DNA of 64,000 bases from an uncultured Candidatus Saccharibacteria bacterium (GCA_964392285.1 CAYMOW010000002.1:1-64000), one strand, 5' to 3'. Shown: positions 15,554 through 58,765, numbered from the stretch's first letter. Numbers and translations are program-made. The notes: generated from the sequence alone by a model not told the origin.

Positions 15554-15823
15554 TTACGACTCGCCGAAGAATGATGGCACAGGAATACCGAAGGTGTTTA
15601 GCACCAAACGCAAGATGCCGTAGACGCTAAACATTACAAACATCCCAATGATACCGTAGAACACATTCATCTTCTTCTTTTCCAAATCCGAACCATCGGC
15701 TCCAGCTATGAGCCCGATAATGCCGTAAAAGAAGAATATAGTCGCCACCACAAAACCCAGAACGATAATCGGATTGATGATGTAGGTGGCTATTTTGCCG
15801 AGCAGGTTCGTAACAGCTGGCAT
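15554..15823 (-). CDS. small two-TM membrane protein, paralog 1 of a seven-member family (VirB2/TrbC-pilin-like?)
   Basis: Helix-charged loop-helix architecture: FFFYGIIGLIAGADGSDLEKKKMNVFYGIIGMFVMFSVYGIL. Confidence 0.65.
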   Translation of the reverse strand: MPAVTNLLGKIATYIINPIIVLGFVVATIFFFYGIIGLIAGADGSDLEKKKMNVFYGIIGMFVMFSVYGILRLVLNTFGIPVPSFFGES

Positions 15824-15826
15824 GTC

Positions 15827-16177
15827 TTATCTTGGAACAAGTTGACGAACATTAAAACCAGGACCCGTACCTGTGTCAATTCCCAAAGCATCACCGAGGA
15901 ATGCTACCAAACCCCAGACAGCAGCCATGACAAAGATGGCCACAACGCCCCAGATCATGGTCTTCTTGGCCTGATCTGCTTTGTGTTCGCCACCAAAGAT
16001 ATACATAGCCAAGCCCCAGAAGAAGAAGAGCATTGCCAAGGCAAAGATGATTGGGATCAGGATATTTATGATATCACCAATCGATTCTGCCAAGCTTTTG
16101 ACATTATTAAGCTCCTGACCAAAAGCCAAAACTGGCGAAGCCAGAGCAACTATTCCGAATGAAATTAATTTTTTCAT
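15827..16177 (-). CDS. small secreted two-TM protein, paralog 2 (signal peptide + pilin-like core)
   Basis: MKKLISFGIVALASPVLAFGQ signal peptide, then core FFWGLAMYIFGGEHKADQAKKTMIWGVVAIFVMAAVWGLVAF. Confidence 0.7.
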   Translation of the reverse strand: MKKLISFGIVALASPVLAFGQELNNVKSLAESIGDIINILIPIIFALAMLFFFWGLAMYIFGGEHKADQAKKTMIWGVVAIFVMAAVWGLVAFLGDALGIDTGTGPGFNVRQLVPR

Positions 16178-16286
16178 TATTTTGTTTTTAATAATTTATT
16201 TAATAACCAAACGACCTAATAATTGAATACATTATAACACTTTCATCCATCTTTTCCAAACTAATTATGTTAATTATGTTTAGATT

Positions 16287-16634
16287 CTAGTAATTTATTC
16301 TTGGCATATTAATGGTATTGCGTTCATCAATACCCAATTCTTGCCTAAAGAACCTCACAAGACCCCAAACAGAAGATATCACAAAGAGCGCAACGACACC
16401 CCAAACCATCACATTTTTCCCCTCTGCTTTGCCATCACCCTCAGATTTGATGTACTTGGCCACACCCCAGAAGAAATAAAGCAAAGCCAAAGTGAAAGCT
16501 ATCGGAATCAAATAAGCACCTACTATGTTATCAACACTGCTTATTATTCTTTCTGTCCCTTGTAAAGCCTGCGCACCTACCACCGTCGGTAAAACTAACA
16601 AAGCCGGCACAATAGAATATTTGAAAAATTTCAT
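16287..16634 (-). CDS. small secreted two-TM protein, paralog 3
   Basis: Signal peptide MKFFKYSIVPALLVLPTVVGAQA, core YFFWGVAKYIKSEGDGKAEGKNVMVWGVVALFVISSVWGLVRF. Confidence 0.7.
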   Translation of the reverse strand: MKFFKYSIVPALLVLPTVVGAQALQGTERIISSVDNIVGAYLIPIAFTLALLYFFWGVAKYIKSEGDGKAEGKNVMVWGVVALFVISSVWGLVRFFRQELGIDERNTINMPRINY

Positions 16635-16649
16635 ATAATTATAAATTTA

Positions 16650-16952
16650 TTAATTATTTTTAACTTCTACTTTGATTGGAATGTTGGAAAGGCCGAGTTC
16701 GCTTCGGATAAAGGCCACAATACCCCAGACCGAAAAGGCCACAAAGAGTCCGATGATACCCGAAACCATAATCCGCCTACCCTCTTCGGCCGCCTTGTCG
16801 CTACTTGCGCCCTCCTTGATATATTTTGCCACACCCCAAAAGAAATACAACAAGCAAAGTGAAAAAGCCAGTGGTATGAGTATGCTGTTCACTATGCCGA
16901 ATGCTGAATCTATGAGGTCGCCAAGTTTCATCCCGTTAGTGAAAAATGGCAT
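16650..16952 (-). CDS. small two-TM protein, paralog 4
   Basis: Core YFFWGVAKYIKEGASSDKAAEEGRRIMVSGIIGLFVAFSVWGIVAFI; about 85% identity to paralog 3 in the core. Confidence 0.7.
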   Translation of the reverse strand: MPFFTNGMKLGDLIDSAFGIVNSILIPLAFSLCLLYFFWGVAKYIKEGASSDKAAEEGRRIMVSGIIGLFVAFSVWGIVAFIRSELGLSNIPIKVEVKNN

Positions 16953-17087
16953 TGCTTTTTTGAAAAGCCACCATTTTATTTTTTAGTTTGTAATTCATAT
17001 AAATATCGACTTAATATATTATAACTCGATTGAAAAAGCTTTTCTATGCCATTTTCTACTACGGGATTCATATTACAATTTTCAATC

Positions 17088-17369
17088 TTAAATCTTAAAA
17101 TTGATTTGCGGTATGCCGACCGGACTGTTCCAACCAAACTCTGAGCGCAAAAAGACCATAATGCCCCAGATAGTCGTCAGCACAAAGAGACCGATTATAC
17201 CCCAGATGAGCAGGTTTTTGCTCTCTTTGAGCTCCTTCTCATTGCCCGCAGCTCGAATAAACCGCCCCACTCCAAGCACAAAGACCAAAAAGGCCACCAC
17301 GCCCAAAAACGGAATAATCTTCATTCCGAGGTCGGTGAACATCTTTACTACTTCGCCAAGGTTTTTCAT
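17088..17369 (-). CDS. small two-TM protein, paralog 5
   Basis: Core VFVLGVGRFIRAAGNEKELKESKNLLIWGIIGLFVLTTIWGIMVF. Confidence 0.65.
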   Translation of the reverse strand: MKNLGEVVKMFTDLGMKIIPFLGVVAFLVFVLGVGRFIRAAGNEKELKESKNLLIWGIIGLFVLTTIWGIMVFLRSEFGWNSPVGIPQINFKI

Positions 17370-17381
17370 AATTTGTCTTTT

Positions 17382-17795
17382 TTATGAGCGCAATTGGTCT
17401 ATCGTGCCACCTATCGCTTCAGATATAACCCAAGCACCGAGGAGTATAGCTGCCCCGATCACTCCATAAAGCAAGGTGTCGTGGGCTGTTTTGATTTTAC
17501 CCGTATCGCCTCTTGCTGTGACATAAAGAAAGCCCGCATACATTATAACCAAAACAGCAATTACTCCGCCTATAGGTATCAGTATTTCGTTTATAACCGT
17601 CTTTATAAAGTCCATCAGATTATCGCCACCCTTGAATGGATTGTCTATTTTTATATTGAATTTGACTGGACTTGGAGCCGGAGTAACCTGTGGACTTGGG
17701 GCTGGAGTAATTTGTGCCCACAAAACCACTGGAACAAAGGCAGAAAATATAACCACAACAACAAAAAGATTTTTGAATAAATTTTTGATCTTCAT
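17382..17795 (-). CDS. small secreted two-TM protein, paralog 6 (Pro/Thr-rich linker)
   Basis: Signal/TM MKIKNLFKNLFVVVVIFSAFVPVVLWA, the repeat PAPSPQVTPAPSP, and core YAGFLYVTARGDTGKIKTAHDTLLYGVIGAAILLGAWVISEAIGG. Confidence 0.65.
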   Translation of the reverse strand: MKIKNLFKNLFVVVVIFSAFVPVVLWAQITPAPSPQVTPAPSPVKFNIKIDNPFKGGDNLMDFIKTVINEILIPIGGVIAVLVIMYAGFLYVTARGDTGKIKTAHDTLLYGVIGAAILLGAWVISEAIGGTIDQLRS

Positions 17796-23194: not shown

Positions 23195-23242
23195 GGCTGA
23201 AATATAGCACAAATCGACCCAAAATGGAAATCCGGCACGAAA

Positions 23243-25105
23243 TTATTTAGTTAAATATTCTATGTTGTATTTTATAAGATCATAAGCTTCTATTGTTATT
23301 GCTTTCTTTTTCAGGAGCAACTGCAATTCAGTCATAAAAAGCTTCACCAAAATTTTATTAACCTTTTTGTCAAAAACCTCTACTCTCTTTAATTTTACTG
23401 AACCATCAGGAAGTTTTTCTTTGACTACCTCTATTTTCTTATTGAATTTGATAGCACCATTAACTTGTTTTATCAGACTATCACGCACCTTTTTATCTTT
23501 AATCCAACCAAGATCGAAAGATTTGTTTATATCTCTTATCAGAGTTTCAAGGGTTATTTCTTCAACATCACTCTCCGGCAACGTGATTTTTGGTTCGCCA
23601 ATTTCTGCCGTCGGTTCACTTGCAATATAATCAACCACTACTTCATATTCAACCTTTTCTCCTTCAACAATATCTTTTTTCACAGTTTCGATCTTGTCTG
23701 TATCAGAATCAGATAACGCTACCGCCATATGATATTTACCATCAGAAGTTCCGACTAGTTCCACCTTGTAATCTCCCGCCAACCCATTAGGAATAATTAT
23801 CATTTTCAACCCCTCAGGATTACTTTCTCCTGTATAAATAGCTCCAGGTATACTATTGGTGTTTTTGGTTATAACTCTGCCTTGCGGATCTGTAATTTTG
23901 ACTTCAACCGGTGAAGCAAACCAAAAAGAAGTCAGATTATCTGGTTCTGGCGGTGGCACATAAGCAACGGATGGTTGTGGTAAAGAAAGAGTGGAGAAGA
24001 TATCGGAAATGGCTTTGGTCGGCAAATCACCGTGTTTCGAATCTACCTCAATGTGTTTTAGGAATTCACTGGGATTTAATTGGGCGTAAGCAGTCGGTAA
24101 AATTTTTGCAAACAATCTTTGCCAAAAATTCTGCATCAGAACTGGTGGAAATATGTCAATCCCACCAAAAGACGCACTGAGAGCCAGTACTCTATTATCA
24201 CCTTCGGTCGTATCTCTGATTGGGGTAATTGGCTCTGGTACTCCATCTACCCAAAGTTTAGTTTCCGAAGCACTCCTTGGGACAATCGGGATACTTTCTA
24301 TTGTGTCTTGACCTTTACCTGCAACTGTCAGAATGCCTCCGACATTTTGTAACTGCATTGTTGAACTATTAAGATTTAGGTTCTCTAGAAAATAATTCCT
24401 GCCTTGTTGAAGATTCTCATATGAGATCAATTCCCCATTCTCATCTTTAAGAAAATTATATAGCGGTAAAAGTTCCCCTATTGATGGAATAAAGCTGTGG
24501 ATGGTGTCGTAACTATCAGCAGTCTGAGCGGTCGCGGTGGTCATATACCAAAGATACAACCCCACCCCAGCCCGTGTTAGTTTATCCCAATTCTCTGGCA
24601 CAACACCACCTTCCCATAATACATAAACTTCAGAGCTACCCCAATTTGGAGTACCTAATAAAATAAGCTTGTTCACATCGTTCCTGTAATTATGACTTTG
24701 GATGTAACGCCTAGTCACCAAACCACCCATAGAGTGAGCGATTATATTCACTTTGCCAGTCGGAGAATTAGCAAGAGCCTTATCTATTGTTGGTATAAGA
24801 TAATCGGTAGCAGAATTTATATTGCTCTGCCTCCAATCATAAAAAGCAATGAAAAGTGTTTTGTCTTTTTCATAACCCGCTTTCTCTAGGGCATCGATCA
24901 TATTATCCCAGGTTTTATCAGATGGAAAGAAATCCCAACTCCCGCTACCATTCCTCTGTAGCATCACTTCCCAATTCCAAGACCCCATAATCCCGGGCAC
25001 TATGACTATTGGTTCTTTTGCTTCTTGAGCAAAAACTTGTTGACAAGGGTTAAATACAAAACTTGTCAAAAACAATAAAATTACAACCTTATGAAATATA
25101 TTCAT
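23243..25105 (-). CDS. secreted alpha/beta-hydrolase lipase/esterase with a C-terminal extension
   Basis: Signal peptide, IVIVPGIMGSW, and the GxSxG nucleophile elbow IIAHSMGGLV. The C-terminal 250 aa are Lys/Glu-rich. The region is AT-rich. Confidence 0.65.
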   Translation of the reverse strand: MNIFHKVVILLFLTSFVFNPCQQVFAQEAKEPIVIVPGIMGSWNWEVMLQRNGSGSWDFFPSDKTWDNMIDALEKAGYEKDKTLFIAFYDWRQSNINSATDYLIPTIDKALANSPTGKVNIIAHSMGGLVTRRYIQSHNYRNDVNKLILLGTPNWGSSEVYVLWEGGVVPENWDKLTRAGVGLYLWYMTTATAQTADSYDTIHSFIPSIGELLPLYNFLKDENGELISYENLQQGRNYFLENLNLNSSTMQLQNVGGILTVAGKGQDTIESIPIVPRSASETKLWVDGVPEPITPIRDTTEGDNRVLALSASFGGIDIFPPVLMQNFWQRLFAKILPTAYAQLNPSEFLKHIEVDSKHGDLPTKAISDIFSTLSLPQPSVAYVPPPEPDNLTSFWFASPVEVKITDPQGRVITKNTNSIPGAIYTGESNPEGLKMIIIPNGLAGDYKVELVGTSDGKYHMAVALSDSDTDKIETVKKDIVEGEKVEYEVVVDYIASEPTAEIGEPKITLPESDVEEITLETLIRDINKSFDLGWIKDKKVRDSLIKQVNGAIKFNKKIEVVKEKLPDGSVKLKRVEVFDKKVNKILVKLFMTELQLLLKKKAITIEAYDLIKYNIEYLTK

Positions 25106-25120
25106 TGTAAATTTTAATAA

Positions 25121-25603
25121 TTATAATATTTTTCCAGACGCATATCCCAAACCAAGTACCATAACGAAAAAGAAAATTGCCACAAAAACAGCCAGCAAAA
25201 TAAGTGCAACAACCAAAGAAATTACGAAATTCTTTAAGGTAAATTTACCGTGCTTTAGAACTATGTAGCAATAAAAAACCAACACTGACCAACCTAAAAC
25301 TGATATCGGTATCAAATCAAACACCTTGTTTTCTATAACACTTTGCAGATTATAACCATTTGAAAAATAATTATGAGTCAGTTCTGTTGCAGACCAAAAT
25401 CCAAACCAAGCACAAACCACAAAAGTCACAAGAGATGTTAGATAGGCTAGGATTACCTGCCACCAAGAGATTGATAATTTTCTTTTCCATTTTCTAAATC
25501 CTAAGTATGCAAAAGGTAAAAAAATAAAAAATGCTGATAGCAAGAAAAATACCCACTCGATAACGAGTATCAATGTAGGCCCCGCCCTAAAATAGGTTTC
25601 CAT
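25121..25603 (-). CDS. hypothetical membrane protein (about 4 TM)
   Basis: Hydrophobic ORF, AT-rich, no recognisable domain. Confidence 0.45.
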   Translation of the reverse strand: METYFRAGPTLILVIEWVFFLLSAFFIFLPFAYLGFRKWKRKLSISWWQVILAYLTSLVTFVVCAWFGFWSATELTHNYFSNGYNLQSVIENKVFDLIPISVLGWSVLVFYCYIVLKHGKFTLKNFVISLVVALILLAVFVAIFFFVMVLGLGYASGKIL

Positions 25604-25666
25604 TTGAGGTTATACACTTATGGTAGCACAACGACTTGATTCGTTTTACAAGCTTATCCACATAAT

Positions 25667-26761
25667 TTATTCAGCACAGATAACATAATGCAGATATTCT
25701 GTCGTCTTGCTTGCTGTATAATTCCTGTTTTCTGATTTATCAGCCCTAAAACGACTATGCTCTTTTGTAAAACATCCATATTTACCCCGGAGACTCATTA
25801 TTTCTCTTATATCATCGGGGGTCATCAAACCTTCATTGTTATAACTCAAAAATATATATTTGACTTTGGCCTTCAATATCAAATCTTTAAACGATTTTCT
25901 GACCTGGTTTTTTGAACAATACAAAGATTTCTGATCAGTATAATCTCGTAGACCAGTCTTCCCATATATTTTAGGATTATCATACCTAGCAATTGTCTCT
26001 AAAATATGATAATTCGTTGCATATTGACGATGATTATATGGTGGGTCAAGATATAAAACATCTCCGTTAATTTTTTCGACGATTTTATTTATATCCATAT
26101 TGAAAATTTCGTGATCTTGTTCATTAACAATCAATTCTGCTGGTTTCAAGATCAGACTACTTTGAGCTGTCTTTTTTAGATTCTTCAGGAAAGCTCCGTA
26201 GACGGATGCTGTGTTCGCATATTTATCAATCGATTCGACTAAACTAGCGATCAAAAAATAATATTCATCATCAGAGATTAAATCTTTCTCTTTCCAATTT
26301 TCAATTTTTTGACGAATAGCGTCGCACCGCATTCCATTTTCATTTGAAAAATATTGTCTTGATTCTTCTTTGTCTTTGGTTTCTCCGAGACAATAATTTT
26401 TATAGATAAAGCCTTTTACACCCTCCAAATTTGATAGATATTCACAAACAAAATCTTTACGTTTTTCTGTGTCAATATTTTTTAGACCAGCAATTTCTTT
26501 TGTTAGTTTTATAAATTTTAATTCCTTATGATTCCCAACATAGTGCCTATTCAATACATAACTGTAATATTGAATATCGTTAGAAATTATTTTGTAACCT
26601 CTTTTCTTGAAATAACTACCGACAACTCCAGTTCCAGCAAATAAGTCACAAAAAACCTTGCAGTTTTTATCAACTACTTTATTAATTGATTCTTCCAAGA
26701 ATTCTAACAAAGATAGTTTACTGCCGATATAATTCATAAATTCATGATAACATACCCGCAA
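25667..26761 (-). CDS. Dam-family (alpha-class, D12) N6-adenine DNA methyltransferase
   Basis: N-terminal NYIGSKLSLLEFL and FCDLFAGTGVVG (motif I); C-terminal LYLDPPYN (motif IV DPPY). Confidence 0.8.
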   Translation of the reverse strand: MRVCYHEFMNYIGSKLSLLEFLEESINKVVDKNCKVFCDLFAGTGVVGSYFKKRGYKIISNDIQYYSYVLNRHYVGNHKELKFIKLTKEIAGLKNIDTEKRKDFVCEYLSNLEGVKGFIYKNYCLGETKDKEESRQYFSNENGMRCDAIRQKIENWKEKDLISDDEYYFLIASLVESIDKYANTASVYGAFLKNLKKTAQSSLILKPAELIVNEQDHEIFNMDINKIVEKINGDVLYLDPPYNHRQYATNYHILETIARYDNPKIYGKTGLRDYTDQKSLYCSKNQVRKSFKDLILKAKVKYIFLSYNNEGLMTPDDIREIMSLRGKYGCFTKEHSRFRADKSENRNYTASKTTEYLHYVICAE

Positions 26762-26799
26762 TAAAATCTATACGAAAACATAGGCTTTTGTGGTAGTAT

Positions 26800-27549
26800 T
26801 TGCCTATGTTAAAAAACGACTTAAATAATGAACGAATTGGCGTCTCTGCTGAAATTTCAATTGCAGATATTTTTGAAATTCCTATCAGTGACAACTATCG
26901 AAATCGCGGAGCACAAGATATTACAAACACCATCAAACCTATCATTGCCGATATCTTCAACTTAAATAATATTCCTCCACCAATCAAACATGTTGCGGAA
27001 AATCAAAATACTATAGATTTTATACTTGAAGGCAATAAAACTTTATCCGTAAAAACAAATAAACAAAAATTGGGCAAAGCTGCACCACAAAAAATTGGCC
27101 AGGCATCATCAAACACTTGGTTTGCGATTTTAGCAGAACGATTAGGTATAGCATATATACCGACAGCTTATCCTGAAAAAGTCAAACTTTTTAAAATAAT
27201 TGCACTAACAAGGATCGAGGAACTACTTTTTATTTACTGGGAATACATGTTCGATTGCGATTTTTTGATCCATATTTTCAATATCGTTGATTCTAATAAC
27301 AACCTTACTCGTGATCCGAAATACATAGTAACTAAGAAAACCAGTAGCCCTATTTGGGATCCTGCAAAAATTACATTTACAAGGCCAACTGTATCCGAGT
27401 GGAATGAGAGCAATACTGTAAAATACGAATACGATGGTGTGGCAATAGGTGAATTTCAAGTCCACAACAATAGGGACAATTTTAAATTTCGTTTCAATAT
27501 GGCCGGTATTTTCAAGTTAATGACAGAAGGTCGTCTCAGTTTTTCTTAA
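26800..27549 (+). CDS. putative type II restriction endonuclease (hypothetical, sits between two methyltransferases)
   Basis: 249-aa ORF with no recognisable family. It is divergent from the Dam-like MTase and convergent with the second MTase; AT-rich. Confidence 0.4.
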   Translation: MPMLKNDLNNERIGVSAEISIADIFEIPISDNYRNRGAQDITNTIKPIIADIFNLNNIPPPIKHVAENQNTIDFILEGNKTLSVKTNKQKLGKAAPQKIGQASSNTWFAILAERLGIAYIPTAYPEKVKLFKIIALTRIEELLFIYWEYMFDCDFLIHIFNIVDSNNNLTRDPKYIVTKKTSSPIWDPAKITFTRPTVSEWNESNTVKYEYDGVAIGEFQVHNNRDNFKFRFNMAGIFKLMTEGRLSFS

Positions 27550-28321
27550 AAACCATTATGTATTCGTGTTTGAATATATAATAATCACTTGATAACGCGC
27601 GGTATCTCCAAATTCCTTCTTTATTCTGTTTGCCACGATTACCAACCATATTCTTTATTATAATACTTTTCAGAATTAGACCTAGTTTTTGAGCCTCATT
27701 CATACAATAAAAACCCAATGGTACCCACTTCCCCATTTTATATGCATCACCAATAACAATCGCCAAATATCTACCATTTTCCAAAACATCTATTGTATTC
27801 TTTAAAACTTCAGCAAATTTTCCTAAAAACTCTTTCAAGGATTTTGCGTTTGATAAATCATCTTTTAAGTCACTAAACTTTATAATATCCGCATATGGTG
27901 GGTGCAATATGGCCATTTGCACATTTTTCTTTTTGTGTTTTTCTAAAATATCTTTTACTTTTTCAAAAGTTTGGATTTTTGTGCTGTCACCTATAATTAG
28001 CTCAGAAAAATTACCTTTCGCATCAATATTCTCACTGACATAATCAACGAGTTTTTTCTGTATATCGATCCCAATAAAATTCCTGTTTAGACTCTCTGCC
28101 TCATAAGCAGTGGTTCCACTTCCTAAAAATGGGTCCAGGATTGTTTCGTTCTTTTTTGTGTACCTAGATATTAACTGGTGAGGAATTTGTGGAACAAAAT
28201 TCCCATGGTAAAAACCGCTATGTTTTCCTGACTTGTCTCTTTCTGAAATAATCCAGAGACTATCCGTCCAAATTTCTGATTCTTTCCACTTACTTAAATC
28301 AAGATCATTAAAAATTGGCAT
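27536..28321 (-). CDS. DNA methyltransferase, N4/N6 amino-MTase (PF01555-like)
   Basis: HGNFVPQIPHQLISRY (motif X-like), ILDPFLGSGTT (motif I), ILHPPYADI (motif IV-like). The table ORF extends to 28441, but those 40 extra codons read through tRNA-Glu; ATG at 28321 (MPIFNDL) is used instead. Confidence 0.7.
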   Translation of the reverse strand: MPIFNDLDLSKWKESEIWTDSLWIISERDKSGKHSGFYHGNFVPQIPHQLISRYTKKNETILDPFLGSGTTAYEAESLNRNFIGIDIQKKLVDYVSENIDAKGNFSELIIGDSTKIQTFEKVKDILEKHKKKNVQMAILHPPYADIIKFSDLKDDLSNAKSLKEFLGKFAEVLKNTIDVLENGRYLAIVIGDAYKMGKWVPLGFYCMNEAQKLGLILKSIIIKNMVGNRGKQNKEGIWRYRALSSDYYIFKHEYIMVFKKN

Positions 28322-28332
28322 CTTAATATTTG

Positions 28333-28406
28333 TGACGCTACCGGGATTTGAACCCGGGTACCAAGCTTGAAAAGCTTGTGTCCTAACCAGACTAGACGAT
28401 AGCGCC
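28333..28406 (-). tRNA. tRNA-Glu (TTC)
   Basis: Reverse complement GGCGCTATCGTCTAGTCTGGTTAGGACACAAGC-TTTTCAA-GCTTGGTACCCGGGTTCAAATCCCGGTAGCGTCA. Confidence 0.8.
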
Positions 28407-28500
28407 TTTCGACTCGCTTTGCTCGCTTCAAGGCAAGCCAAGGAGAGAGTAATAGTAACATATTTTGATAAAAAGGCAAAAAATGATAGGCTGTAATTAG

Positions 28501-52050: not shown

Positions 52051-52467
52051 CTAAGAGTTGAGGTAAGTAATGGTCAATTGCAAAACAGTGGCAAAAGAGA
52101 CCCACAAGAGATATGGAATGTTCGCATAAACTACCCACCTCAGATCACTAGAACCTTGAGGCACAAGTCGCCATATTAGGACCATCCCCCAGACCAAAGT
52201 AGCCAGAACCAGCAAAATATCGATCGAGGCCAAAAGATTGTTTTGCAGACCAAATTGAATCGGTGTAAAAGCAAAATTAAAAAACAGATTCAAAACAAAA
52301 GGCAACGCCACAAATCGCGGAATCTTGCGCTTCAAGGCAGAGTAAAAGACTTTACCAAAAGAAATGGCAATGATGGCATAAAGTACCGTCCACACCGGAC
52401 CAAAGACCCAACTCGGCGGCGCCCAAGATGGTTTGATCAAATCTATATACTTAGTTGTTTCGTTCAT
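52051..52467 (-). CDS. tspO: TspO/MBR-family tryptophan-rich sensory protein
   Basis: PSWAPPSWVFGPVWTVLYAIIAISFG: the canonical TspO N-terminus and a 5-TM layout. Confidence 0.85.
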   Translation of the reverse strand: MNETTKYIDLIKPSWAPPSWVFGPVWTVLYAIIAISFGKVFYSALKRKIPRFVALPFVLNLFFNFAFTPIQFGLQNNLLASIDILLVLATLVWGMVLIWRLVPQGSSDLRWVVYANIPYLLWVSFATVLQLTITYLNS

Positions 52468-52515
52468 GTTATTTTATAACTTACATAAATTTGATAGTAT
52501 TGTGATGATTTGAGT

Positions 52516-53346
52516 TTACGCCGTGTTGAGAGATACCGCAACTTTTGCTTTCAAATATTCGCCGACTATAACATCGATTCCTACTGGATTTTTATACCAA
52601 GAATCTCGTTTATATTGATCTCCCGTACCGCAATTTACACGAATCAACCTAGCATCATCGGGAAGATATTTTTTGAAATGAGCCCAACCCCTTCTTTGGG
52701 TATAAGGAGAATTCACCAAAACGATTGAATTGTAAGAAATTCCTTTTTCATCAAGAATATTTAACGAACTCCTTACATTATCAGGGACAGTAATTGATTT
52801 GTCTTCAATAATAATTGCTTTTTCTGGCACACCTTTATCCATGGCCATTTGAGCATAAACTTCTGCCTCGGTCGGAGCAGAGCCCTCTCCATAATACGGA
52901 CCTCGACCACTGACGACAATAGTTTGTGATATCTCTTGTTTATAAAGCTCAATAGCTTTTTCAATTCTAAATGGAGTTTTGGCACCAAAAACAAATATCA
53001 AATCCGATTTTTCTGGCACATCTTCCTCGGCAAGATAATCGTAAACACTGTTAAGTACTTCTACGTCTTCGGGTAACAATTCTTTGTTAAGAATCTTGCC
53101 TTTTAACTGCCCTACAATACCTTTTCCTTTTTCTAACAAATTTTCATTACCTACGTCTTCTTTTGAATATGTCGTGGCCAAAATTTGAGCATCCAAACCA
53201 AAATGTTCAGCCAGTTTAATCAATGGAGAAAAATCAAAATAATGAAGTTCTTCCTTTCCTTTAGGAAAACCTCTTTTTGCTTCCGCATCGAGGATAGTCT
53301 TGAGTTCTTCTGAGTTTGGCAGTTGACTAAAATTATCTCTTTTCAT
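52516..53346 (-). CDS. DUF218/YdcF-ElyC-like domain protein
   Basis: LIFVFGAK...IVVSGRG...EAEVYAQMAMDKGVPEKAIIIEDKSITVPDNVRSS...LVNSPYTQRR. Confidence 0.6.
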   Translation of the reverse strand: MKRDNFSQLPNSEELKTILDAEAKRGFPKGKEELHYFDFSPLIKLAEHFGLDAQILATTYSKEDVGNENLLEKGKGIVGQLKGKILNKELLPEDVEVLNSVYDYLAEEDVPEKSDLIFVFGAKTPFRIEKAIELYKQEISQTIVVSGRGPYYGEGSAPTEAEVYAQMAMDKGVPEKAIIIEDKSITVPDNVRSSLNILDEKGISYNSIVLVNSPYTQRRGWAHFKKYLPDDARLIRVNCGTGDQYKRDSWYKNPVGIDVIVGEYLKAKVAVSLNTA

Positions 53347-53410
53347 CTCTTACATTATAGACTAATATTATACGATTAAATTTTGCTAGTTGTTTGAGAG
53401 AGTATACAGA

Positions 53411-54229
53411 CTATTTTAGACCAAGTACCTTTTCAACAAAAGGCTTAAATTTATTGAACTCTGCAGCAACATCTGGGCCTATCTCCACTATCGACTCTTC
53501 ATATTTTATTTCTTTTTTTAAACTTCTTTCTACATAATCGTCGTGGATTTCCCCCAACCATGCAGATAGTTTAAAAATAGAATAAAACAGCCAATGTAAG
53601 TTTCCGCCACAATTCTCAGCAGCAGGGACTTGCATAAGATTCGATAATAATCGAAATCTTTTTCTTAATTTATGAAATTGTTCTATTGGAAGATTGTTTG
53701 CCTGTACTAGTGTTGCAATGTGATCTAAAATACTTTTCGCATATTTTTTGAATTCTTCTGTATCTATAAAATTTACTGAAAAATCTAGGTCGCTCAAACT
53801 ATCTAAAATACCTTCCCTAATTTCTGGTTGAGATGATATCCAGTAACTGTCATTGTACTCACCCAAAAGAAACAAAAAGTGATTTAATTTTTCTCCACAT
53901 TTATGGCTGGTGTCGGTAAATCTATATAGAGCTTTCAGGATCAGCCCATAACGCCTAACCTGTTTTAAATAAGAAAAGCTTTCTTCATTTGCTTCAAGTT
54001 TAATTTCTCGTACAAACCTCTCCTTATCAAAAATAAATTCAAATGCTTTTCTTGCTTCTTCAAAAATATGTTCACGATATTGTTTATCTTCAAAAATATT
54101 TGAAAAATCAACTTCATCAGGATTCAATTCTGGTCTTGTTCTAATATCAAAAAAACGAGAGACCAGGATTGGTTCAGTCTGTATGTTCTCTAAATTATTT
54201 TTCATATTTGATATATTATCAGGATTCAA
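53411..54229 (-). CDS. hypothetical protein (272 aa), AT-rich
   Basis: ORF only; I recognise no family. Confidence 0.4.
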   Translation of the reverse strand: MNPDNISNMKNNLENIQTEPILVSRFFDIRTRPELNPDEVDFSNIFEDKQYREHIFEEARKAFEFIFDKERFVREIKLEANEESFSYLKQVRRYGLILKALYRFTDTSHKCGEKLNHFLFLLGEYNDSYWISSQPEIREGILDSLSDLDFSVNFIDTEEFKKYAKSILDHIATLVQANNLPIEQFHKLRKRFRLLSNLMQVPAAENCGGNLHWLFYSIFKLSAWLGEIHDDYVERSLKKEIKYEESIVEIGPDVAAEFNKFKPFVEKVLGLK

Positions 54230-56407: not shown

Positions 56408-57493
56408 TTACCTGCCTATTTGTTCTCGCAACATTTTAATAAGTTCGGTTACAAGTTGTGAGTCATATTTGCCACTAACTTCTTTTGTTCTAGGTTCAGA
56501 AAATAGTATATCTAAACCTTTATCAAGAATTTTCTCCCCTCTCTCTTTGTGGGTAGTAATAAGGTTGTTCATAGTATTCATTGATGAATACTTAAACATA
56601 TAATTATTATAAAGTCGTTTGTGAAATAAAAACTGATTGGCAGCAAAAAGGGTTAGGTACGCGGGCACAATTAAACTAGTTATACGCAATATAGCCATAC
56701 CAACTTTTATTTCCTGAGTTTTTGTTGCTGCTTTAATAATGAATTCGTATGTTACCCATCCGGTCATAAAAGCAAAAATAAACGAGGCTAGAAGCCATAG
56801 CCAACTACCACCCAAATCATATTCAGAAGGAAATTTCTTCATTTTTTCTTTTATAGATTCAGGAGCATTATTTTTGCCTATCCAAGCACGAATTGTTTTA
56901 TGTTCACGAGCCATATCATGGAATGCTTCAGCTTGTTCCTCTATTGTTTTTCCGTTAATGTCGCGCCGAATATGTAACCATTTCTCTGCTCCACCGATTG
57001 CTTCTTGTATGTCAGTAGATTTAGTAGCAAGTGAATTAGCAACACTTTCTGCCTCTGTAAAACGATTTATTTTTTGAACAAGAATGCTTTCAGCAATTTT
57101 TGCAGCATTTAAATCTACATATATACCAGTGTTCTTAATCGAGGAGTTAAGTGAGTGCAATTGCGATACCGCATTATGATGTTGGGTGGTAATTTGATCA
57201 TAACCAAGAGTGGGTAAACCATGATTGTTATAAGAATTTATAAATCCAGATAACTGATTGTCGATGTTTCTAATATCAAGCGGTGAAGCTGAATCAAGAA
57301 CAGAAATGTTAGTTTTGATATCTTGCAAAAGATTAACCACAATTTGTACCAAGTGTTGGACATCTTCGGGAGTTAAATTATTCCAATTTTGTATACTAGG
57401 ATTTTTGGAGTACAACTTACTAAGATCAAATTTTAAAATCTGATCAATTTTTTCCAATATCTGTGCTTTTACTTCTGAGGTTGCCATCTGCAA
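56408..57493 (-). CDS. hypothetical protein with a soluble N-terminal domain and a C-terminal 2-TM module (SLATT-like effector architecture?)
   Basis: About 230-aa soluble region, then WLWLLASFIFAFMTGWVTYEFII and MAILRITSLIVPAYLTLFAANQFLF, plus a roughly 80-aa tail; AT-rich. Confidence 0.5.
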   Translation of the reverse strand: MQMATSEVKAQILEKIDQILKFDLSKLYSKNPSIQNWNNLTPEDVQHLVQIVVNLLQDIKTNISVLDSASPLDIRNIDNQLSGFINSYNNHGLPTLGYDQITTQHHNAVSQLHSLNSSIKNTGIYVDLNAAKIAESILVQKINRFTEAESVANSLATKSTDIQEAIGGAEKWLHIRRDINGKTIEEQAEAFHDMAREHKTIRAWIGKNNAPESIKEKMKKFPSEYDLGGSWLWLLASFIFAFMTGWVTYEFIIKAATKTQEIKVGMAILRITSLIVPAYLTLFAANQFLFHKRLYNNYMFKYSSMNTMNNLITTHKERGEKILDKGLDILFSEPRTKEVSGKYDSQLVTELIKMLREQIGR

Positions 57494-57956
57494 TTATAGT
57501 TTCTATTATTCTTAATTTGTTTTTAAAATTATCTCCAACCTCTACAACTTCTAGTAGTAAATTCGTATCTTGAAACAACTGTTTTTTAAAGTGGTCGGAA
57601 CTAATTCGTTTGGGGTCAAGGTGCGATTTGCCATTAAGTTCTATAGCAAAGATGGGTTTAAAATACTCGTTGCACACAAGAAAGTCAACATGCCGAGACC
57701 AGATTTTATTCCGCCATTTATAATCTGAATTTGTTGGTTCGATAAAATCTATAATTCTTGTTTTTGGGAAAATATGATATTCAGGCGGCAAAGACTTTTT
57801 GAGTTCAAAAAATAGAGCTTCCTCACTCTTATTGAAAAAATTTTGTCTTAGTTTGTAAGGTAATTTTTCTTCACCACTTTCAAACTTTAAGCCTTTAAAA
57901 ATAGCCAGCAAAATTACAAGAACAATTATTGCTATAGCAAAATAAATCATAACCAA
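57444..57956 (-). CDS. membrane-anchored DUF2726-like (restriction-endonuclease-fold/NERD-like) protein
   Basis: N-terminal TM, and HVDFLVCN...PIFAIELNGKSH (a D...E-x-K-like motif). Confidence 0.5.
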   Translation of the reverse strand: MVMIYFAIAIIVLVILLAIFKGLKFESGEEKLPYKLRQNFFNKSEEALFFELKKSLPPEYHIFPKTRIIDFIEPTNSDYKWRNKIWSRHVDFLVCNEYFKPIFAIELNGKSHLDPKRISSDHFKKQLFQDTNLLLEVVEVGDNFKNKLRIIETIIADGNLRSKSTDIGKN

Positions 57957-58531: not shown

Positions 58532-58612
58532 TTCGCTTTGCTCAGTGTCAGTACCTTCGTCTCAGTTTATTTCCTCGTGCCGAAGGCCCTGAGGAGCTAT
58601 TGCGACGAAGGG

Positions 58613-58683
58613 CTGCGGGACTTGGGCTCGAACCAAGATTAACGGATTCAGAGTCCGCTGTCCTACCATTAGACGATCCCGCA
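58613..58683 (-). tRNA. tRNA-Gln (CTG)
   Basis: Reverse complement TGCGGGATCGTCTAATGGTAGGACAGCGGA-CTCTGAA-TCCGTTAATCTTGGTTCGAGCCCAAGTCCCGCA. Confidence 0.75.
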
Positions 58684-58765
58684 ATGTTCTGTATAAAAAT
58701 ACCCTGAAATCAGATAAAATTCAACGTCTGGACGATTTTTTCAACACACAGGTTGAGCCTGTGTG

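Follow-up and report, generated by a model that had tools for sequence, protein, structure and literature searches.

A predicted three-gene type II restriction-modification cassette with two methyltransferases and a probable CATG target in a variable slot of a Patescibacterial genome

The closest described counterparts of the locus analyzed here include the CviAII restriction-modification (RM) system of chloroviruses, which is directed at CATG and relies on m6A modification (PMC7248222), and the DpnII system, which sets the precedent for an accessory methyltransferase (MTase), DpnA, that acts on single-stranded incoming DNA (PMC3573125). Our analysis of 64,000 nucleotides from an uncultured Candidatus Saccharibacteria bacterium, a stretch referred to as a whole as the window, indicates that an intact type II RM cassette of about 2.65 kb, self-contained and comprising three genes, occupies the segment from 25.67 to 28.32 kb, within a variable slot of this Patescibacterial genome. 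The cassette belongs to an ordinary kind of bacterial defense system and represents a new example rather than a new kind. As the account that on balance fits best, we propose that it is a CATG-specific type II RM cassette consisting of a nuclease (R), its cognate MTase (M1) and an accessory MTase (M2). The features of the region are the following, in coordinates of the window:

23213..28331, no strand: variable slot bounded on one side by a conserved MBL-fold gene and on the other by the tRNA-Glu 3' end (synteny plus alignments of the junctions to relatives L007, L008 and L009; GC)
23243-25105, minus strand: secreted LCAT-type alpha/beta-hydrolase, lipase/esterase-like (Pfam LCAT 5.4e-17; AHSMGG nucleophile elbow; N-terminal signal-like segment)
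25121-25603, minus strand: 160-aa multi-pass membrane protein, orphan (no family match)
25667..26737, minus strand: M1, D12-class (alpha) N6-adenine DNA MTase with MNYIGSK...DLFAGTG...DPPY (Pfam, PADLOC)
26738..26805, no strand: divergent M1/R spacer of 68 bp, presumed promoter region (sequence)
26806..27549, plus strand: R, 247-aa PD-(D/E)xK restriction endonuclease of the chlorovirus-type REase family (PADLOC match, residues, AF2)
27536..28321, minus strand: M2, 261-aa amino-MTase with the linear order X-I(DPFLGSGTT)...IV(HPPY) (Pfam, PADLOC)
28332-28406, minus strand: tRNA-Glu(UUC), at whose 3' end the variable slot stops on the right (ARAGORN; alignment with relatives)

All five ORFs, the drop in GC and the tRNA-Glu gene lie where an earlier, sequence-only reading of this DNA had placed them, and its central proposal, an intact RM system with one nuclease and two amino-MTases of different classes, was borne out. 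Separate, adjacent R and MTase genes that are conserved together, a nuclease fold with a catalytic motif in R, and complete MTases carrying motif I and motif IV in both M1 and M2 are among the features that characterize a type II RM system, and each of these was found. The two outcomes that the reading had named as fatal to it did not materialize: the central ORF encodes a nuclease and not a member of a non-nuclease family, and the MTases are full length with all motifs instead of being orphan or phase-shifted fragments. All three genes were present together in 50 of 80 metagenome loci as well as in all four sampled contigs (4/4), and they form a conserved unit that recurs in many unrelated genomic contexts, with no fewer than five gene orders. 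The nucleotide homology to the closest cassette copies is confined to the stretch bounded by the M1 stop and the M2 start, and the GC content of the cassette is about 0.32.

The central ORF (26800-27549, plus strand; likely start ATG 26806) had been described as a candidate nuclease without a recognisable family. The lack of a family holds for searches of Pfam, NCBIfam and PDB sequences, none of which produced a match, but not for PADLOC, in which the REBASE-derived REase_II model PDLC03458 matched R at 1.5e-15, with residues 11-241 aligned to profile positions 128-333 of 342. Giant-virus homologs of R match this model at 1e-40 to 5e-62, and R belongs to a family of more than 1,100 homologs, all of which are named "hypothetical". 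The 342-aa profile is presumably that of R.CviAII. The alignments of R, and of most of its homologs from bacteria and viruses (220-250 aa), are restricted to the C-terminal two-thirds of PDLC03458, and the full-length architecture with the N-terminal ~125 positions is not found in R. The nuclease assignment itself is supported by the PADLOC model, by the invariant residues of the family and by the predicted fold. E16, D71 and S81-x-K83 are invariant and represent candidate catalytic residues; in the AF2 model, which forms one compact domain with a pLDDT of 93, E16 is located on helix 1, D71 at the start of a beta-strand and S81-x-K83 on the next strand. The folds closest to this model are R.HinP1I and R.MspI, although the Foldseek comparison was not significant. 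In giant viruses and in the locus L137, homologs of R have only one MTase as partner; they are fused to a D12 MTase in L179, and occur as a tandem R-R fusion in L168. R is thus a single-domain PD-(D/E)xK nuclease from a large, mostly unannotated family that also occurs in giant viruses.

M1 is encoded by an ORF at 25667-26761 on the minus strand with a likely start at ATG 26737. It matched Pfam PF02086 (MethyltransfD12) at 3.7e-48 over the entire profile (1-253 of 253) and PADLOC MTase_II PDLC03257 at 2.8e-113. Its previous description as a Dam-like alpha-class N6A MTase with a DPPY motif was correct with regard to the alpha class and the motif, but the likeness to Dam did not hold, as the score of M1 with the dam model, 29.9 bits, stayed below the cut-off of 114.85, and no solved Dam, DpnM or T4Dam chain in the PDB was matched. 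M1 belongs to the 'MNYIGSK' branch of D12 enzymes. Its place beside R is conserved in 57 of the 80 metagenome loci, copies of it with 74-78% identity are found in cassettes with other nucleases, and it is the probable cognate CATG MTase.

Since CATG depletion tracks the R family, ICEA nucleases co-occur in cassette copies, the M1/R spacer is enriched in CATG, and the chlorovirus CviAII system uses CATG and m6A, we consider it likely that R cuts the 4-bp palindrome CATG and that M1 protects the host via C(m6A)TG. CATG is the most depleted 4-mer of the host (obs/exp 0.44, z -10.5), compared with an obs/exp of 0.89 both in the nearest relatives (L007-9) and in 1.26 Mb of Patescibacteria controls. 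The ratio ranged from 0.47 to 0.71 in every R-carrying bacterial group and from 0.20 to 0.42 in viral R groups regardless of the MTase partner, with a value of 0 in some 12-kb contigs, and the depletion was unaffected by the flanking base. GATC, GGCC and ACGT were likewise depleted in the pooled cassette flanks, and CATG avoidance could also come from another CATG system elsewhere in the genomes. In three cassettes (L113, L119 and L120) an IceA/NlaIII-type nuclease (PF05315, 2.7e-70) is positioned between M1 and M2. The M1/R spacer carries CATG at 26743-26746, and 11 of 16 distinct spacers of the M1/R type contain this word, amounting to 11 sites versus 2.9 expected, an approximately 4-fold enrichment, whereas further palindromes matched in base composition reach 0-2 sites. 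The spacer CATG is a possible methylation-sensitive control site, whose methylation status might conceivably tune expression. More distant cassettes have a C-protein gene in place of the spacer CATG. A scan for promoters and terminators yielded nothing above chance.

The second MTase is encoded within a long ORF (27536-28441) that overlaps tRNA-Glu; translation actually begins at ATG 28321, which leaves 10 nt to the 3' end of tRNA-Glu and gives a protein of 261 aa, and all M2 homologs have 260-262 aa. M2 is convergent with R, with an overlap of 14 nt. It matched Pfam PF01555 (N6_N4_Mtase) at 2.3e-28 in two permuted stretches and PADLOC MTase_II PDLC03351 at 2.4e-100. In bacterial cassettes M2 is always accompanied by a conventional MTase, either of the D12 or of the beta-class DPPF type, and M1 and M2 are retained as a pair with 74-80% identity even where the nuclease located between them has been exchanged for an unrelated one. 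At least four unrelated nuclease families take part in this exchange, namely the CviAII-like R, a family of 286-299 aa with D-x9-D-x-K, a 389-aa NucS_C/PDDEXK protein, and IceA/NlaIII HNH enzymes. Because of this retention of M1 and M2 across nuclease swaps, the constant pairing of M2 with a D12 or DPPF enzyme, and the presence of a single conventional MTase, without any M2, beside viral R homologs and in L137, which would fit a second MTase that self-protection can do without, M2 may be an accessory second MTase of the same system, architecturally comparable to DpnA in the DpnII GATC cassette, a reading whose chances we rate as about even. In such a role, the substrate of M2 might be DNA that is single-stranded or incoming, or M2 might modify a second base within the site.

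The strongest competing explanation, that M2 is independent of R, either as a DNA MTase with its own target (an epigenetic or anti-restriction passenger, or what is left of a second RM system that has lost its nuclease) or as an RNA m2G-type enzyme, draws on the much larger size of the M2 family, with more than 6,800 homologs in over 120 clusters at >=77% identity compared with about 420 matches for R. Moreover, L249 has M2 but neither M1 nor R, and in the three IceA-containing cassettes it is translationally coupled to the ICEA nuclease and not to R. The AF2 core of M2 is confident and its best solved folds are the tRNA m2G MTases Trm11/TrmN, and one source labels an M2 homolog as 'RsmD family RNA methyltransferase'. 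The motif IV of M2, HPPY, is atypical for m6A and m4C enzymes. However, the persistent linkage of M2 to R and a conventional MTase across rearrangements, including the conserved convergent overlap with R, and the strength of its match with the type II MTase model argue against independence. So does motif I, DPFLGSGTT, a form usual among N6_N4 DNA MTases, for which the PDB search gave matches to DpnA, M.MboIIA and CcrM, with only this motif aligning to DpnA. We therefore regard an independent M2 as rather unlikely. A wider form of the accessory reading, which we put forward tentatively, is that the conserved unit is an MTase 'immunity pair' of an M2-type enzyme and a conventional CATG adenine MTase, into which at least four unrelated nucleases have repeatedly been swapped or stacked, with M2 representing a class of accessory DNA MTases that has yet to be characterized and the nuclease family being shared by ultra-small bacteria and giant viruses of algae. 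If this were the case, M2 could shield single-stranded DNA as it enters naturally competent Patescibacteria or, alternatively, add a second mark to CATG.

From the presence of two MTases and one nuclease it had been proposed that the system recognizes a type IIS-like or short non-palindromic, asymmetric site, with M1 modifying one strand and M2 the other and both being needed. The strict retention of two MTases per nuclease in bacterial cassettes would also be predicted by such an arrangement. In addition, M1 matched a PADLOC profile of 646 positions (1.5e-92), the N-terminal half of whose fused D12 MTase it resembles, better than one of 326 positions (2.2e-50), and if the longer profile were FokI-like (GGATG) an asymmetric site would be possible for M1. 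In contrast, type IIS nucleases have separate recognition and cleavage domains and typically exceed 400 aa, whereas R is a single domain of 247 aa with no separate recognition module, and its homologs are paired with one MTase in viruses and L137 or fused to one in L179. The word that tracks the family is a palindrome, CATG, without influence of the flanks, no asymmetric 5- or 6-mer stands out, and IceA/NlaIII-type CATG nucleases are found in the same cassette type. Since R homologs in viruses have a single MTase, M2 always occurs with a conventional MTase, and the nuclease is swapped, a DpnII-like architecture is favored over a type IIS one; an asymmetric site thus seems improbable, and M2 would not be the enzyme for its other strand.

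The surroundings of the cassette were compared with those in relatives that lack it. The order gyrA-orf115-MBL-[variable]-tRNA-Glu-tRNA-Ser-tsaD is kept in L007 and L009, the cargo of the slot differs in each relative (L007, L008, L009), and in junction alignments the similarity ends immediately upstream of where the MBL gene starts (about 23215) and restarts exactly at the tRNA-Glu 3' end (28332). The cassette is absent from 80 of 80 TsaD loci, including those of L007 and L009. The GC scan and the alignment with cassette-free relatives confirmed an AT-rich, atypical region abutting the tRNA: GC is 0.31-0.41 in the slot and about 0.47 in the flanks. As a caveat, low-GC patches are frequent in the 64-kb window, with others at 15.5-17.8, 33-34.5, 52-54.3 and 56.4-58 kb. 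Within the slot, composition forms two layers of 0.40 and 0.32, with the lipase region at 0.38-0.41 and 25.0-28.3 kb at 0.31-0.35, and the island is composite, with the RM cassette proper extending only from about 25675 to 28321. The lipase ORF (GC about 0.40; 0 CATG versus 6.3 expected from base composition) has a 33%-identical, lipase-like counterpart in the same slot position of L009 and is resident slot cargo outside the RM cassette. The membrane protein had no family match in Pfam, NCBIfam or PADLOC and no tblastn match among 246 loci, falls outside the block of cassette nucleotide homology, and is separate cargo without a link to the cassette at other loci; the inclusion of both genes in one RM island unit was consequently not upheld. 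It is very improbable that the 5.1-kb stretch arrived as a whole, with the lipase, membrane protein and RM genes delivered together by site-specific recombination in a classical genomic island targeted to a tRNA, as the proposal of the tRNA as a classic integration site implied, since insertion at the tRNA 3' end, atypical composition and a few cassette copies near tRNAs (L247, L100, L101, L104) are set against the failure to find an integrase or recombinase ORF (ORF calls and Pfam) or a direct repeat of the tRNA-Glu 3' end near 23.2 kb or elsewhere in the window (best match 14/17, inside the lipase ORF), the two composition layers, the end of cassette homology at the M1 stop codon, the lipase-like gene already present in cassette-free L009, and the location of most other cassette copies away from tRNAs.

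Compared with known systems, the cassette shares two MTases per nuclease with type IIS systems of the FokI/BstF5I-like, MboII and HgaI kind, and M1 resembles the N-terminal half of the fused profile, but R is far too small and its homologs manage with one MTase. The monomeric type IIP PD-(D/E)xK enzymes R.HinP1I and R.MspI are nearest to R in modeled fold; however, they are only 9-12% identical without a sequence-level match, recognize GCGC and CCGG, and are partnered by C5 MTases. NlaIII and HpyI (iceA1-hpyIM) likewise have a D12-class CATG adenine MTase, and their ICEA nuclease type lies between M1 and M2 in three related cassettes, whereas the window contains no ICEA gene, R is a PD-(D/E)xK and not an HNH enzyme, and NlaIII and HpyI have a single MTase. 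With DpnII-type systems (DpnM, DpnA and DpnB; MboI, LlaDCHI) the cassette has in common the compact two-MTase architecture of a D12 alpha MTase, a small N6_N4-type MTase and a small nuclease, but R does not match the DpnII Pfam family, GATC is not depleted in the host (obs/exp 0.96), M1 is not Dam/DpnM-like, and M2 has the linear order X-I...IV, unlike the beta-class DpnA. Finally, CviAII of PBCV-1 (A251R, M.CviAII; A252R, R.CviAII; C^ATG, C(m6A)TG) resembles the cassette in that R, as its giant-virus homologs, matches PDLC03458, viral homologs are paired with a D12 'NYIGSK' MTase similar to M1, and CATG is the depleted word around the R family, whereas R is only about 30% identical to the viral proteins and lacks roughly 127 N-terminal profile positions, and the cassette described here adds M2 as a second MTase.

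The region between the MBL-fold gene and tRNA-Glu carries what is predicted to be an intact, ordinary type II restriction-modification (RM) cassette, composed of a nuclease encoded by the central ORF (R), a D12-class adenine methyltransferase (MTase; M1) and a second amino-MTase (M2). All ORFs listed in the sequence-only reading are present in the region, and both the RM system and the island that it proposed are real, while its type IIS assignment and its mechanism of integration at the tRNA are not supported. The features are as follows:

23243-25105, minus strand: secreted LCAT-type alpha/beta hydrolase (lipase; Pfam 5.4e-17)
25121-25603, minus strand: 160-aa membrane protein without family match
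25667-26761, minus strand: M1, D12-class adenine MTase (PF02086 3.7e-48, full length)
26800-27549, plus strand: R, central ORF (likely start ATG 26806, 247 aa)
27536-28321, minus strand: M2, second amino-MTase (261 aa, the same length as all its homologs)
28332-28406, minus strand: tRNA-Glu

M1 likely starts at ATG 26737, since its homologs begin with 'MNYIGSK', and the real start of M2 is ATG 28321, the mechanical ORF call of 301 aa reading through tRNA-Glu. By sequence comparison, R, M1 and M2 each match REBASE-derived type II models, and the cassette is thus not a new kind of system.

The central ORF is predicted to be a restriction endonuclease. R had no match in Pfam or NCBIfam, a PDB sequence search yielded nothing but chance hits to ribosomal protein S16, Foldseek against the PDB had no significant hit (best E 0.05), and a tblastn search against plasmids found no match. 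It matches the REBASE-derived type II endonuclease profile REase_II of PADLOC (PDLC03458) at 1.5e-15, and the earlier suggestion of a novel family is not supported. More than 420 close members of the R family and more than 717 further ones around a giant-virus relative were found, every one of them named 'hypothetical'. In an alignment of 40 members E16, D71, S81-x-K83, E201, E216-x-Q218 and H220 are invariant, and the AlphaFold model of R (pLDDT 93.3) puts E16 in helix 1, D71 where a beta strand begins and S81-x-K83 in the strand that follows, a predicted arrangement that corresponds to the canonical PD-(D/E)xK layout. UpaP162 of Ureaplasma, a CATG blunt cutter with 'no known domain', has a predicted C5-type MTase as its partner (PMC6191088) and is for this reason probably unrelated to R.

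The three genes recur as a unit. Four sampled homologs of R (47-88% identity) all lie beside a D12 MTase and an N6_N4 MTase of 261-262 aa, with otherwise unrelated neighbourhoods, and R, M1 and M2 occur together in 50 of 80 metagenome loci, in at least five gene orders, the others being mostly short contigs or members of a divergent subgroup. One cassette-bearing metagenome contig (L089) also encodes a predicted tRNA with the anticodon UUA (1335-1408), which would read the UAA stop, either as a possible suppressor or because its host may use an alternative genetic code. The viral collection contained approximately 159 relatives of R at about 30% identity, many of them from giant-virus MAGs, which match the same PADLOC model far better (1e-40 to 5e-62). 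These viral copies are fused to an MTase or have a single MTase partner, either a conventional beta-class DPPY enzyme (L170, L215) or a D12 'NYIGSK' enzyme (L205, L169, L175). On viral contig L179 (5908-7686) the nuclease, here an R-like domain with a VDFILEGGKTLSVKTN core, and the MTase, of the D12 'NYIGSK' kind, are encoded by one 592-aa ORF, a type IIC-like fusion of families that are separate in the window. Two tandem R-like domains in one polypeptide at locus L168 (2983-3672; 497-aa ORF) suggest that members of the R family act on double-stranded DNA in units of two domains.

The recognition site of the cassette is probably CATG, to which several independent but indirect lines of evidence point. 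CATG is the most depleted 4-mer in the host DNA of the window (108 observed vs 244 expected, obs/exp 0.44, z -10.5), equally across all four flanking bases, compared to obs/exp values of 0.89 both in the closest cassette-free relatives and in 1.26 Mb of Patescibacteria controls. Every group of contigs with an R-family gene likewise has CATG-poor flanks, with obs/exp values of 0.71, 0.56, 0.53 and 0.47 in the four R-identity subgroups of bacterial contigs with the three-gene cassette, 0.71 in other bacterial R-family contigs, and 0.20, 0.42 and 0.24 in viral R-family contigs grouped by MTase partner. No palindrome is more depleted than CATG in any of the three viral groups, and some 12-kb viral contigs lack it completely; the values for six 12-kb giant-virus contig pieces encoding an R-family nuclease (L204, L246, L241, L190, L219 and L174) are 0.00-0.05. 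Since GATC, GGCC and ACGT likewise run low when the bacterial flanks are pooled, this line of evidence is supportive and not exclusive. In the spacers between M1 and R, CATG was found in 11 of 16 distinct ones (11 sites vs 2.9 expected), compared to 0-2 occurrences for each of the seven further palindromes with the same base composition. The CATG of the window spacer (26743-26746) lies just upstream of the M1 start, and in the closest cassette group the spacer CATG shares bases with an extended -10-like ttCATGGTAAGAT located upstream of R; a promoter and terminator scan gave nothing above shuffled expectation. Five distant copies (L153, L155, L157, L162, L166) have a 360-390-nt spacer with a small Xre-type helix-turn-helix ORF (C-protein-like) and no CATG, and copies without this ORF have a short spacer, usually with CATG. 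PADLOC profiles PDLC03458 and PDLC03720 span 342 and 326 positions, presumably the sizes of R.CviAII (342 aa) and M.CviAII (326 aa), respectively. The chlorovirus CviAII system (A251R/A252R), which has been characterised, has the specificity CATG/m6A (PMC7248222). GATC as the site of a DpnII-type system was rejected: GATC is at a normal level in the host DNA of the window (obs/exp 0.96), a DpnII domain is missing, and M1 is not Dam-like, contrary to its earlier label.

The AT-rich character of the region from about 23.2 kb to tRNA-Glu was confirmed by a GC scan, in which values fell from approximately 0.47 to 0.38-0.41 across the lipase gene and 0.31-0.35 over 25.0-28.3 kb; comparable low-GC patches occur in four other places in the window. 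A scan of species-representative genomes with the neighbouring TsaD as query identified the host as a Patescibacterium, with a TsaD identity of 70-78% to its nearest relatives, and two cassette-free relatives (L007, L009) share the arrangement gyrA-orf115-MBL-[variable]-tRNA-Glu-tRNA-Ser-tsaD-large surface protein. Alignments with the relatives lose similarity just upstream of the MBL start (~23215) and regain it exactly at the tRNA-Glu 3' end (28332), so that the borders proposed earlier enclose a true variable slot. Its content varies from genome to genome, with two unknown ORFs in L007, a 725-aa lipase-like protein 33% identical to the window lipase in L009 and yet other genes in L008, and R, M1 and M2 were absent from all 80 TsaD loci. 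Because nucleotide homology with the closest cassette copies (73-77% identity) is limited to the stretch from ~25675 to 28321-28332, bounded by the M1 stop and the M2 start, the island is composite, a bare 2.65-kb RM cassette beside older or unrelated cargo (lipase and membrane protein). The lipase gene (23243-25105) contains no CATG (6.3 expected by base composition) and the cassette contains four (7.9 expected), which is consistent with a longer residence of the lipase under host CATG avoidance. Integration directed by the tRNA was not supported: no integrase was present among the ORFs or Pfam hits of the region, and neither a repeat scan nor a query with the tRNA-Glu 3' end (three mismatches allowed) found a copy of it, apart from 14/17 matching positions within the lipase ORF. 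The cassette is not generally adjacent to tRNAs, other copies lying mostly away from them; here it sits in a hot-spot adjoining tRNA-Glu. Elsewhere in the window, a low-GC patch (~0.32) at 56408-57956, beside tRNA-Gln (58610-58684), codes for an unknown protein of 361 aa together with one containing DUF2726 (nuclease-related), and could represent a further small insertion with an accessory or defence role. Low GC was also found at 15554-17795 (0.38-0.42), where six small ORFs (89-137 aa) follow one another on the minus strand, the last of them encoding a TrbC/VirB2-type T4SS pilin (PF18895 3.3e-08), and at 52051-54229 (0.33-0.38; TspO/MBR, DUF218 and an unknown ORF of 272 aa).

M2 is an addition found specifically in bacterial cassettes; it is partnered with a D12 M1 in most loci and is missing from the viral pairs and from locus L137. 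In two loci of higher-GC bacteria (L122:4641-6513, L142:4140-6099), R and an M2-like MTase with HPPY kept are accompanied by a beta-class DPPF MTase replacing the D12 M1, and the two-MTase layout thus persists despite the replacement of one MTase class. The argument that M2 alone suffices was dropped, since three loci apparently with R and M2 only also carry a beta-class MTase. Close homologs of M2 (~80% identity) and M1 (74-78%) also enclose completely different middle genes. Because the MTases are kept while the middle genes differ, the pair forms a conserved module with an exchangeable nuclease, the pattern expected of enzymes with one common recognition site. Among these middle genes are unannotated proteins of 286-299 aa with a D-x9-D-x-K motif (L247:4786-5685, L251:4786-5685, L250:5051-5911) and proteins of ~390 aa (389 in L248:4786-5955; also L120:2224-3396, L142:2959-4143) with a NucS_C/PDDEXK-like C-terminus and a conserved 'THVFIV..F..HLEY.FAG' N-terminus. 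They have neither a BLAST relation to R nor a PADLOC hit and are candidate new restriction nucleases. In three clusters (L113:7139-7765, L120:4547-5197, L119:135-779) the gene immediately upstream of M2 encodes a nuclease of the ICEA family (IceA1/NlaIII-type HNH), and R and M1 are also present, giving two unrelated nucleases with two MTases.

Our analysis identifies a predicted and apparently functional restriction barrier for this genome, and the testable prediction of its specificity (CATG, m6A) could aid the transformation or genetic manipulation of Patescibacteria. Of more interest are the by-products. A family of more than 1,100 proteins common to bacteria and giant viruses, 'hypothetical' in public annotation and outside Pfam and NCBIfam, can now be assigned a fold, a set of candidate catalytic residues and, probably, a specificity. 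The MTase pair emerges as a 'hub' with swapped nucleases, which brings to light further unannotated candidate nucleases at the position that R occupies between M1 and M2, and with M2 as an uncharacterised class.

As to why the cassette has two MTases, a function of M2 independent of R, or even directed at RNA, has a modest probability in view of its unusual HPPY motif IV, for which a literature search found no report, its linear motif order (X-I...IV) and its nearest solved folds, the Trm11/TrmN RNA m2G MTases. An asymmetric type IIS site with one MTase per strand, as first proposed from the paired MTases, is not favoured, since R is a single small domain, its homologs work with one MTase and the associated word is palindromic. 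The nearest architectural precedent for a two-MTase cassette is the DpnII family of GATC cassettes, in which DpnA, a small N6_N4 MTase that methylates incoming single-stranded DNA, joins a D12 MTase (PMC3573125), and by analogy M2 might play a DpnA-like accessory role in the cassette described here.
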